NCBI GenBank assembly: GCA_963721305.1
Contig: CAVRIR010000006.1
Location: 119,224-183,223, forward strand
Length of the DNA stretch: 64,000 bases
Source: an uncultured Acidimicrobiia bacterium
Lineage (GTDB): Bacteria > Actinomycetota > Acidimicrobiia > Acidimicrobiales > JACDCH01
Direction of reading: 5' to 3'
Shown: in pieces, positions 39,583-42,500 of the stretch
Layout of the letters: each line of letters opens with the position of its first letter
How positions within the stretch are numbered: position 1 is the first letter of the stretch
Translations under genes and position numbers: made by a program
Notes under the pieces: generated by a model
What the model was told of the DNA's origin: nothing
The model's input: only the letters and a program-made list of their open reading frames with translations
The model's database searches: none

Positions 39583-42500
39583 GCCTGTCACCGGCACTGC
39601 CACAGGTGTGATCGGGCTCGGGGGGGCGACGGGCGCGGCGCGAACGATCATTGTCGCCTCCACGGCGGGCGCGGCGTCACCGTTCGGACCGACGCCAGAG
39701 ACGGTCGCGACGTTCGTGATGCTCCCGCCCGCGACGTCCGCCGGCGTGGTCGTGTAGGTGGCCGTGCACGTCATGGACGCGGCCGGCGCGAGCGTCGTGC
39801 TCGGGCACGTGACCGCCGACAGGCCCGGCATCGGGTCCGTCACCATCACGTCGGTCAACGTGACGTTGCCGGTGTTGGTGACGACGAAGCTGTAGGTGAC
39901 GAGTTGGTCCGCCGCTGTCACCACGCTCGGGTCGGCCGTCTTCACCATCGTGAGGGCCGCGGTCTGGGTGACGGACGCGGTGGCCGACGATGGCGGCGAC
40001 TCGGTCGCGCCTCCGCCGGGGAGGGTGCCGCTGGCGACGGCAGTGTTCGCGATCGATGACCCGGCGTCGATGTCGGCCTGGGTGACGGTGTAGGTCGCGG
40101 TGCAGTCGACACTGGCACCGGGCGCCGAGCGGACCGGTCGGGCAGGTGGCCACCGGCGGAGTCCCGGTGCCGGAGAACGCGGTCTCGTCGATGGCGATCG
40201 CGCTCACGGTGACGTTGCCGGTGTTGGTCACATGGAACGTGTAGGTGACCACCGCACCGGCGGCATCGACGGTGGCCGGGCTGGCCGTCTTCACCATCGT
40301 GAGCGCCGCGGTCTGGGTGGCGGGCACGGTGGCCGTCGACGGCGGCGACTCGATCGCGCCCCCGCTGGTGATGGTGCCGGTGGCGATGGCGGTGTTGGTG
40401 ATCGAGCCGGCGTCGATGTCGGCCTGGGTGACGGTGTAGGTCGCGGTGCAGTCCTCACTGTCACCGGGCGCCAGCGCGGTCGAGCGGGCAGGTGGCCGTG
40501 GGCGGTGCCGGTGCCGGAGAACGCCGTCTCGTCGATGGCGATGGCGCTCACGGTCACGTTGCCGGTGTTGGTCACATGGAACGTGTACGTGACCACGTCA
40601 CCCGACCGCAGCGACCGTCGTCGGGCTGGCCGACTTCACCATCGTGAGCGCCGGGCTCTGGGTGGCAGGCACCGTGGCCGTCGACGGCGGCGACACCGGC
40701 GCGAGCGCGCCGGCCGGCGGCGTGCCGGTCGCGGTCGCGGTGTTGGTGATCGACCCGGCATCGATGTCGGCCTGGGTGACGGTGTAGGTCGCGGTGCAGT
40801 CCACGCTCGCGCCCGGCGCCAGCGGACCCGGCGGGCACGTGACCACCGGCGCGGTGCCGGAGCCGGAGAACGCCGTCTCGTCGATGGCGATGGCGCTCAC
40901 GGTCACGTTGCCGGTGTTGGTCACATGGAACGTGTACGTGACCGCGTCACCGACCGCGGCGACCGTCGTCGGGCTGGCCGACTTCACCACCGTGAGCGCC
41001 GGGGTCTGCGTCGCGGGCACCGTGATCGATGACGGCGGCGAGTCGACCGCCTCGTCGGCTGGGAGTCGTGCCGCTCCGGTCGCGGTGTTGGTGATCGACC
41101 CGGCATCGATGTCGGCCTGGGTGACGGTGTAGGTCGCCGTGCAGTCCACACTCGTCGCCCGGCGCGAGCGGGCCCGGCGGGCACGTGGCCACCGGCGGGG
41201 TGCCGGTGCCGGTGAACGCCGTCTCGTCGATGGCGATGGCGCTCACCGTGACGTTGCCGGTGTTGGTCACATGGAACGTGTACGTGACCACGTCACCGAC
41301 CGCGGCGACCGTCGTCGGGCTGGCCGACTTCACCAGCGTGAGCGCCGGGGTCTGCGTCGACAGGCACCGTCGCCGACGACGGCGGCGACACCGGCGGCGT
41401 GACTCCCGCCGGCGGCGTCGCCGGTCGCAGTCGCAGTGTTGGCGATCGACCCGGCATCGATGTCGGCCTGGGTGACGGTGTAGGTCGCCGTGCAGTCCAC
41501 ACTCGTCGCCCGGCGCCAGCGAGCCCGGCGGGCACGTGGCCACCGGCGGCGTCGCCAGTGCCGGAGAACGCCGTCTCGTCGATGGCGATGGTCGCTCACC
41601 GTCACGTTGCCGGTGTTGGTCACATGGAACGTGTACGTGACCACGTCACCGACCGCGGCGACCGTCGTCGGGCTGGCCGACTTCACCATCGTGAGCGCCG
41701 GCGTCTGCGTGACAGGCACGGTCGCCGACGACGGCGGCGACACCGGCGGCGTGACTCCCAACGGCGGCGTCGCCGGTCGCAGTCGCAGTGTTGGCGATCG
41801 ACCCGGCATCGATGTCGGCCTGGGTGACGGTGTAGGTCGCCGTGCAGTCTGACACTCGCCGCCGGCGAACGAGGGCTCCGGCGGGCAGGTGGCCACCGGC
41901 GGCGTGCCAGTGCCGGAGAACGCCGTCTCGTCGATGGCGATGGCGCTCACCGTGACGTTGCCGGTGTTGGTCACGAGGAACGTGTACGTGACCACATCAC
42001 CGGGCCCGGTCACCGTCGCCGGGCTGGCCGACTTCACCATCGTGAGAGCCGGGGTCCGGGTCGCCGGCACGGTCAAGCTCGACTGGTCGCTGACATCCGC
42101 CCCGGTCGGCGGCGTGCCGGTGGCGGTGCCGGTGTTGGTGATGCTGCCCCGGTCCACATCCTCCTGGCTGGTGACGTAGGTCGCGGTGCACGTCTCTTGC
42201 TGGGTTGGTGCGACGGCGGACACCGGGCAGTTCACCGCCGAGAGGCCAGGCATCGGATCGAACACGACGACAGGGTCGAGCGTCACGTTGCCCGGGTTCG
42301 TGACCTGATAGCTGTACGTGATCGTCGTACCTGCAGCCGAGAAGCTCGACGGATTGGACGCCTTCGACAGGGTGATGGCCGGGATCTGCAACGCGGGCAC
42401 GGTGACGGACGCCTGCTCGACGACGCGTCTGCCCGAGTGGTCCCTCCGCGGTGACGGTTCCCGTATTCGTGATGCTCCCGCGGTCGACGTCCGCCTGGGT

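Follow-up and report, generated by a model that had tools for sequence, protein, structure and literature searches.

The 64,000-nt stretch analysed here (the window), taken from contig CAVRIR010000006.1 of an uncultured Acidimicrobiia bacterium, carries on its minus strand, from ~52300 down to 39583, a giant surface-protein gene of ~12.7 kb, which ~90 single-base frame breaks split into >40 open reading frame (ORF) pieces. The gene encodes a signal-like N-terminus, a DUF6923 domain whose Pfam match is distributed over three frames, a single DUF11/CLIPPER domain and a long array of DUF7507/CLIPPER_2 units. The initial annotation, made from the letters alone, had counted 34 units, and nhmmer arrives at the same number. 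Matches to PF24346 and PF01345 lie far over the Pfam threshold; for PF24346 the in-frame pieces give tandem copies above the gathering score, with E-values of 1.8e-49 to 9.7e-92. DUF11 and DUF7507 are now named CLIPPER and CLIPPER_2 in Pfam and are stalk domains of fibrillar adhesins, CnaA-like immunoglobulin (Ig) domains with an intramolecular Lys–Asn isopeptide bond that is predicted or demonstrated (PMC12617251). The AlphaFold2 (AF2) model of one intact unit, U31, is all-beta (predicted local distance difference test score, pLDDT, 88.9). A Foldseek search of the PDB with the unit model returned generic Ig-like matches only (E>=4.6e-3), including ACE19 and the pilins BcpA and SpaD; a sequence search found no PDB relative of the unit, and the expected homologue 9IFR did not surface. 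Judged by its sequence, the host gene is most likely a fibrillar adhesin with a 34-domain stalk.

Frame breaks were called by a custom frameshift-aware alignment of each unit to a CLIPPER_2 profile built from clean units. This superseded a jackhmmer search on three-frame pieces, which was contaminated by out-of-frame pieces; a plot of GC at third codon positions (GC3) was too noisy at 67% GC, and the frame maps of a codon-usage hidden Markov model are approximate only. Across the 34 units, the alignment places 73 '+1' events (one surplus base) and 18 '-1' events (one missing base). When these are skipped, the 3,758 aligned codons of the 34 units contain not a single stop, and Lys7, Asn29, Cys59, Cys72, Asp82 and Asn90 are present in 34/34 corrected units, as is an acidic residue (Asp/Glu) at position 45. 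Lys7, Asp/Glu45 and Asn90 would correspond to Lys72/Asp112/Asn152 of the reference protein, the triad that is predicted to make the intramolecular isopeptide bond (PMC12617251), a match judged by spacing only. Read without regard to the single bases gained or lost, the gene is an intact, selected fibrillar-adhesin gene. For comparison we used four contigs of relatives (L001-L004), found by a protein search with the stitched N-terminus. The coordinates of the features discussed below are collected in Table 1.

Table 1. Features of the giant gene and of the neighbouring ATPase gene (window coordinates; strand as read, "." where a tract is given without strand)
Feature	Coordinates	Strand	Observation
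Giant surface-protein gene	39583..52300	-	Delimited by Pfam, nhmmer and three-frame translation
Unit U28	41702..42052	-	Breaks at ~41848-41860 and 41774
Unit U29	41349..41701	-	353 nt (L003 ortholog 351 nt); five '+1' breaks including site A
Unit U30	41003..41348	-	346 nt; its single '+1' break is site A
Unit U31	40655..41002	-	Intact reference; AF2 model a confident Ig-like beta-sandwich
Identical 73-nt tract, U29 copy	41444..41516	.	Equals 41093-41165
Identical 73-nt tract, U30 copy	41093..41165	.	Equals 41444-41516
Site A in U29	41504..41507	-	One surplus base in sense GGC GAC G AGT; L002 in frame, L003 +3, L001 same +1
Site A in U30	41153..41156	-	Identical surplus base in identical 73-nt context; L003 (ACC CAG AGC GTG GAC) and L002 (GGT GCG AGT GTC GAC) in frame
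Site B in U28	41770..41778	-	Surplus G in ACC GGC GAC GCC; relatives ACC GCG ACG CC or ACC GGC ACG CC
Site B in U29	41418..41426	-	Surplus G matching that of U28; L001-U29 has the same
Site C in U29	41549..41557	-	Surplus base in GGC GAC GCC; L003 GGC ACC CC, L002 GGA GCC CC, L001 GGCAGCCCC in the same column
DUF6923, two '+1' breaks (~52015, ~51605)	51600..52020	-	Non-repetitive; breaks private to the window; Pfam three-frame split and 5-way alignment
P-type ATPase C-terminus	52565..53000	-	Split over three frames; two '+1' breaks, ~52983 and ~52734

The same surplus base recurs in two adjacent units

The initial annotation had drawn attention to an extra plus-strand T at 41155 and again at 41506, 351 nt apart, at the homologous position of two neighbouring units, U30 and U29 (site A). 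The plus-strand letters bear this out, as does the 27-mer GTGCAGTCCACACTCGTCGCCCGGCGC, which occurs exactly twice, at 41139 and 41490, again 351 nt apart. The context is indeed shared by the two sites, over 73 nt instead of the 65 nt first given. The frame comparison with the next unit is also correct: U31 reads intact at ~40822-40793 in the sense (minus) direction (CTGGCGCCGGGCGCGAGCGTGGACTGCACC; CCG GGC GCG AGC GTG GAC TGC ACC), and U29 and U30 are both shifted (CCG GGC GAC GAG TGT GGA CTG CAC). The base to be counted as surplus varies with the alignment and may be a sense A (41155/41506) or a sense G (41153/41504). Compared with U32 (GGT GAC AGT GAG GAC) and U33 of L003 (GGC GAC AGC GAG GAC), the reading GGC GAC [G] AGT GTG GAC is at least as likely as an inserted A. 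Site A is a variable codon in the loop that separates the conserved LAPG from the second conserved Cys.

The neighbourhood holds further lesions of this kind. The loop of U28 that is homologous to site A is also damaged, by a related lesion at ~41848-41860, and a second +1 recurs at site B (ACC G[G]C GAC GCC), at ~41774 in U28 and ~41422 in U29. As a side observation, a 423-aa ORF (41330..42601) stays open over U28, yet ~27 codons of the most conserved segment, bounded by the breaks near 41848-41860 and 41774, are out of frame, so that an open ORF conceals a scrambled domain.

With ~73 '+1' events distributed over 119 profile columns, same-column pairs are expected by chance alone. One could hence suppose a locally unpolished or very-low-coverage stretch in which random read errors have accumulated and two of them coincide at site A. 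The indel density of ~0.8% is within the range of single Nanopore reads, and it is local, with private 1-nt indels at ~8 per kb in the giant gene vs ~1 per kb in the flanks. We nevertheless regard this explanation as very unlikely. What goes beyond chance at site A is that U29 and U30 agree in the surplus base, in its context and in the 73 nt around it, and that the same +1 appears in U29 of L001, an independent assembly; 12 columns with surplus bases are common to the window and L001 where ~1 would be expected. Moreover, the breaks show a strong insertion excess, avoidance of homopolymers and depletion from invariant columns, patterns that random Nanopore errors would not be expected to give. 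The initial argument against such a repeat occurrence of a random sequencing indel was right; the recurrence points to a deterministic artefact and not to a real mutation.

The 73-nt tract and the exact 351-nt spacing could also suggest that U29 and U30 are one unit written twice by the assembler, an expansion error that the initial annotation had listed among its possibilities. However, the two units are only 89.0% identical overall, with 3' thirds that are unrelated in sequence. Both exist in L003, each paired with its window ortholog (90.5% and 91.9%) within a collinear 34-unit array that has no unit-sized gap, and both also exist in L002, collinear as far as the locus of that contig extends. 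The divergence of the two units and the collinear independent assemblies refute the duplication, to which we assign practically no chance. Programmed frameshifting or recoding was considered as well and is untenable, given ~90 sites without a shared signal.

The gene is under purifying selection

Parsimony was used to assign the codon changes found in 3,025 codon columns to branches. Changes private to the window comprise 145 synonymous and 54 nonsynonymous substitutions, corresponding to an omega of ~0.14, alongside 0.13, 0.12 and 0.16 on the branches of L001, L002 and L003, respectively; the pairwise dN/dS of the window vs L003 is 0.32 at a dS of 0.22. These values show strong purifying selection on the window lineage, indistinguishable from that on its relatives, without relaxation toward an omega of ~1. 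Since ~90 real frameshifts would mean neutral evolution, stops and deletions of mixed size, and none of these is seen, the giant gene is, on the evidence of its codons, almost certainly not a pseudogene.

Independent assemblies are broken at different positions

The contig L003 shares the gene order of the window (OTCase, P-type ATPase, giant gene, YkuD), is collinear with positions 38489-57341 at 90.9% identity and carries the same 34 units, many of which measure exactly 330 nt vs 331-333 nt for their window counterparts. Nearly all gaps between the two (124/135) are single-base. At site A, U30 of L003 is in frame (CCG ACC CAG AGC GTG GAC TGC), and so are both units of L002 (GGC GCC AGT GTC GAC TGC in U29; GGT GCG AGT GTC GAC TGC in U30). 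By contrast, U29 of L001 has the same +1 as the window (GGT GAC G AGC GTG GAC), and U29 of L003 reads GGCGCGACAGCGTCGGAC, which is 3 nt over length; this unit (L003:20740-20760) is in frame at site A only through three surplus bases, which add a spurious residue (LAPGATASDC).

The lesions vary from one of these independently assembled relatives to the next, and a stretch that is broken in one assembly can be intact in another. The giant gene contains 68 surplus bases in the window vs 23 in L003, and in the adjacent ATPase gene the asymmetry is reversed, with 22 surplus bases in L003 vs 4 in the window, whose copy is mostly intact. L003 has an N-terminal ORF of 1,253 codons without a break, where the window has many, and in the unique N-terminal region, compared over five assemblies, each carries private 1-nt insertions except L003, which has none. 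Over 11.3 kb aligned 4-way, private insertions/deletions number 45/13 for the window, 53/15 for L001, 19/4 for L002 and 5/3 for L003.

The lesions that are shared do not follow descent. Substitutions group the window with L003 (332 informative sites vs 62 for the window with L001), yet between 41190 and 52320 the window shares 12 surplus-base columns with L001 (for instance 48118, 47797, 41553 and 41422) and 5 with L003, against a chance expectation of 0.4-1.2 for the columns common to the window and L001 (P ~8e-9). Most lesions are private, and that at site A is absent from U30 of L003. Because the sharing with L001 conflicts with the substitution grouping, we do not regard the insertions as inherited; as recurrent and tree-incongruent events, they indicate site-specific artefacts, that is, putative error hot spots across assemblies. 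JGI metagenome contigs were also scanned for exact matches to a pattern of the conserved core of the unit, in search of a short-read version of the site, with 0 hits.

These comparisons bear directly on the alternative that a real +1 arose once in a real pseudogene and passed from one of the two units, U29 and U30, to the other through gene conversion or a duplication of the unit, before homogenisation of the array had ceased. The lesion does recur together with its context, some concerted evolution is plausible given that units within the window are about as similar as orthologs (91.7% for U28-U29; 89-92% for window-L003), and L001 has the +1 of all three sites, A, B and C. On the other hand, the omega of the window branch equals that of clean relatives, the corrected codons are free of stops and every catalytic or structural residue is retained. 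The ~90 lesions are all of 1 nt and ~80% of them are insertions, the sister assembly L003 is free of the U30 lesion and stays open over the first 1,253 codons, and the indels in common with L001 contradict the substitution tree. The genome is also not generally decaying, as neighbouring genes are intact: beta-lactamase, arginine deiminase, amino-acid permease, Na+/H+ antiporter and OTCase are full-length against Pfam. We thus consider the copied frameshift highly improbable. A related scenario, in which an insertion-prone mutational process very recently placed ~70 real single-base insertions in a still well-conserved adhesin gene, some of which then travelled by gene conversion to neighbouring units and to other strains, seems to us more improbable still; if true, the locus would be a freshly inactivated, recombining hypervariable surface-protein gene.

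Surplus bases lie at variable codons and resemble neighbouring alleles

The surplus bases of the window lack the association with homopolymers that is the classical signature of Nanopore indels: 51 of the 68 (75%) are not adjacent to an identical base, and for this reason we prefer a superposition of alleles over homopolymer miscalling. The '+1' events are enriched beside high-entropy profile columns (p=4e-4), and none falls in the invariant 14-residue block. The breaks are densest (6-9 per unit) in U10-U13 (46700-48050) and U18 (45037-45375); these units are also the most divergent from L003 (80-88% identity), so that errors and variability coincide there.

To relate inserted bases to known variants, we used a column-based test on the 4-way alignment against simulated random insertions. 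The inserted base equals a relative's alternative allele at the adjacent column in 27% of cases in the window vs 12% in the simulation (p=0.007), and in 57% vs 11% for L001 (p=2e-15), 37% vs 10% for L002 (p=0.002) and 60% vs 9% for L003 (p=0.007). Several sites illustrate the pattern. At site A, GGC GAC AGT and GGC GCG AGT combine to GGCGACGAGT; at site B, ACC GCG ACG and ACC GGC ACG combine to ACCGGCGACG, found in U28 and U29 of the window and in U29 of L001; and at site C, GGC ACC CC (L003) and GGA GCC CC (L002) account for the L001 string given in Table 1. In the same manner, GTC GCG GGC (L001) and GTC TCG GGC (L002) yield GTCGTCGGGC in the window at 51605, and GCG/GCC ACC becomes GCGCACC at 48118 in both the window and L001. 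The 18-mer of L003-U29 is an exact superposition of GGC GCG AGC GTC GAC and GGC GAC AGC GTG GAC; at +3 it happens to preserve the frame. Taken together, most of the frame breaks are insertions of 1 nt; they lie for the greater part outside homopolymers, gather at variable codons, and are largely private to one assembly or else recur against the phylogeny.

A systematic basecalling or polishing error could in theory arise from homogeneous reads, if a k-mer or a methylated motif around GGYGACAGYGTGGAC always gained one base. The 73 nt shared by the two window sites would fit, as would U29 of L001, from another sample, which has the same +1 in the near-identical context GGTGAC[G]AGCGTGGAC; other contexts recur as well (GAG[C]TTC three times, GGT[C]GACG twice). 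Yet no one error motif and no methylation-like k-mer emerged from the 68 insertion contexts: none dominates, and the best 6-mers reach 4 occurrences vs ~0.5-1 expected. The same short contexts stand uncorrupted elsewhere in the window, with 44 copies of GAGTTC and 14 sense-strand copies of GGCACGCC, and errors that a motif should produce window-wide are confined to the giant gene. That the insertions track variable columns and alternative alleles is, furthermore, unlike a pure k-mer error. We therefore hold this explanation to be rather unlikely.

A probable origin in consensus calling from heterogeneous reads

We interpret the surplus base at site A as a consensus artefact of a long-read metagenome assembly; that it is an artefact of some kind, and not a mutation, is very probable. 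For its specific origin, the superposition of two alleles is a reasonably probable mechanism, and we envision it as follows. The reads piled on the contig at the giant gene would be heterogeneous, their sources being either strains that live side by side and differ in a hypervariable adhesin gene, or adjacent units of near-identical sequence. An allelic difference in adjoining bases would be rendered in the alignment as one insertion plus one deletion, and a consensus caller whose error model makes deletions cheap (the Flye polisher or Medaka) may retain bases of both alleles, as a string holding both would then outscore the choice of one. At site A, GGC-GAC-AGT-GTG (Gly-Asp-Ser-Val) and GGC-GCG-AGT-GTG (Gly-Ala-Ser-Val) would merge to GGCGACGAGTGTG, a net gain of one base. 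The same error would be made twice, in U29 and U30, because the 73 nt are identical, the same pair of alleles meets and the software is deterministic. The initial annotation had left three options unranked; its context-specific systematic error is supported in a refined form, in which the artefact would recur wherever the same pair of alternative codons meets, and the copied real frameshift and the assembly duplication did not stand.

The sequencing platform of the window is suggested by its relatives. The closest public ones are 'contig_N' assemblies in ENA, of Flye style, and long-read metagenome-assembled genomes (MAGs) of uncultured Acidimicrobiaceae from Microflora Danica. The latter are Nanopore-only and were produced with Flye --meta --nano-hq and one Medaka round, in a project that reported microdiversity as a limiting factor (PMC12313526).

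Several points weigh against the superposition of alleles. A k-mer-based superposition test was modest (p=0.004 at k=10, p=0.08 at k=12 and not significant at k=14) and less clear in its outcome than the column-based one. Mismatches to L003 are not enriched immediately flanking the insertions of the window, and for some insertions, for example at 52015, the second allele is seen in no relative. The 22-base cluster of L003 lies in the ATPase gene, which is non-repetitive; mis-mapping between repeats is thus not the whole story, and we invoke a mixture of strains for this gene. In principle, recombination could also have moved a real allele shared by the window and L001, which have the identical +1 at all three sites (A, B and C). 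Finally, we infer the heterogeneity of the reads from assembled sequences, on which the mechanism rests, and the long-read platform of the window from its relatives.

Neighbouring genes

The P-type ATPase gene next to the giant gene has two surplus bases in its C-terminal part. At ~52983, the window has CTCAACGTGC vs CTC-ACGCGC in L003, a surplus base common to the window and L004; at ~52734, it has ATCGATC vs ATC-ATC, a surplus base private to the window. The ATPase ortholog at L003:7000-9320 combines its 22 surplus single bases with 14.6% mismatches to the window, and the neighbouring OTCase differs by 2.2%. The adhesin gene is flanked by a cluster of the arginine-deiminase pathway (55302-62719, minus strand) that is kept in L003 and L004: OTCase at 55302-56309, arginine deiminase within 58298-60100, a member of the Na+/H+ antiporter family at 59548-61119 and an amino-acid permease at 61133-62719. 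Elsewhere, two Chromate_transp matches fall in overlapping ORFs of different frames on the plus strand (18557..19315 and 18745..19731), and this pair (18557-19731) may be either a two-gene CHR pair or another frameshift.

At its end, at 39583 (within 39095-39680, minus strand), the giant protein has no obvious sortase or transmembrane anchor. Directly after it comes a small lipoprotein-like gene with the lipobox LALTSC, followed by a YkuD L,D-transpeptidase gene at 38316-39095. The true C-terminus of the giant protein is uncertain, because the tail of the gene has three single-base differences to L003 (39694, 39670 and 39568).

Implications

The gene has the look of a shattered pseudogene but most likely encodes an intact fibrillar adhesin with 34 domains; automatic annotation would render it as dozens of fragments or as a pseudogene. 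Two more general lessons follow from the locus. The recurrence of an indel at homologous positions of a repeat, even across two independent assemblies, is not in itself evidence that the indel is real. Nor does being in frame count as evidence of correctness, as the +3 superposition in U29 of L003 and the open ORF over the out-of-frame segment of U28 illustrate. A signature that can be read from sequence only consists of 1-nt insertions that keep clear of homopolymers, sit at variable codons and repeat the alternative allele of the neighbouring position; with it, such regions of long-read MAGs could be flagged or repaired. The map of artefacts would, indirectly, mark real balanced polymorphism within the population in the variable loops of the stalk, a possibility compatible with an artefactual origin of the surplus bases. 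The frameshift itself holds no new biology, and the adhesin gene is otherwise ordinary, though large; the finding is valuable mainly as a caution.

Comparison with known systems

When long-read assemblies of mixed or diploid samples are polished over collapsed haplotypes, a single consensus has to accommodate both alleles, and variant sites acquire local indels. The window resembles this situation in that a surplus base is often the alternative allele of the position beside it; it differs in that the putative haplotypes would be co-existing strains and/or paralogous units of a bacterium from a soil metagenome. Bacterial pseudogenes, for their part, usually show a deletion bias and lesions of mixed size. 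The giant gene is like the decaying pseudogenes of, for example, reductive genomes in concentrating many frame disruptions in one gene. Unlike them, it shows no relaxation of selection, no stops and no large deletions, and its lesions are biased to insertions, 1 nt only and not inherited along the tree.

With fibrillar adhesins (PMC12617251), the giant protein shares a long tandem stalk after a signal-like N-terminus and an N-terminal non-repeat domain, the Lys/Asp(Glu)/Asn set and the Cys pair in 34/34 units, and the modelled Ig-like beta-sandwich. It departs from them in its 34 units and its origin in an uncultured Acidimicrobiia-like soil bacterium, in an N-terminal domain, DUF6923, that is not a characterised adhesive domain, and in having no C-terminal sorting signal that we could see. 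It also has no sequence-related solved structure, its fold matches are generic and its isopeptide bond is a predicted one.

A close technical parallel is offered by the errors of Nanopore-only MAGs made with Flye and Medaka (mmlong2 / Microflora Danica, PMC12313526). There, too, single-base breaks fragment genes and are private to each assembly; those MAGs were inspected for Nanopore-associated errors, which were tied to low coverage and long homopolymers (PMC12313526). The breaks of the window differ in that 75% of the surplus bases lie outside homopolymers, insertions outnumber deletions by 3-4 to 1, and the errors concentrate at the variable codons of one hypervariable repeat gene. Therefore, we view this error pattern as pointing to heterogeneity among the reads and not to the calling of homopolymer length.

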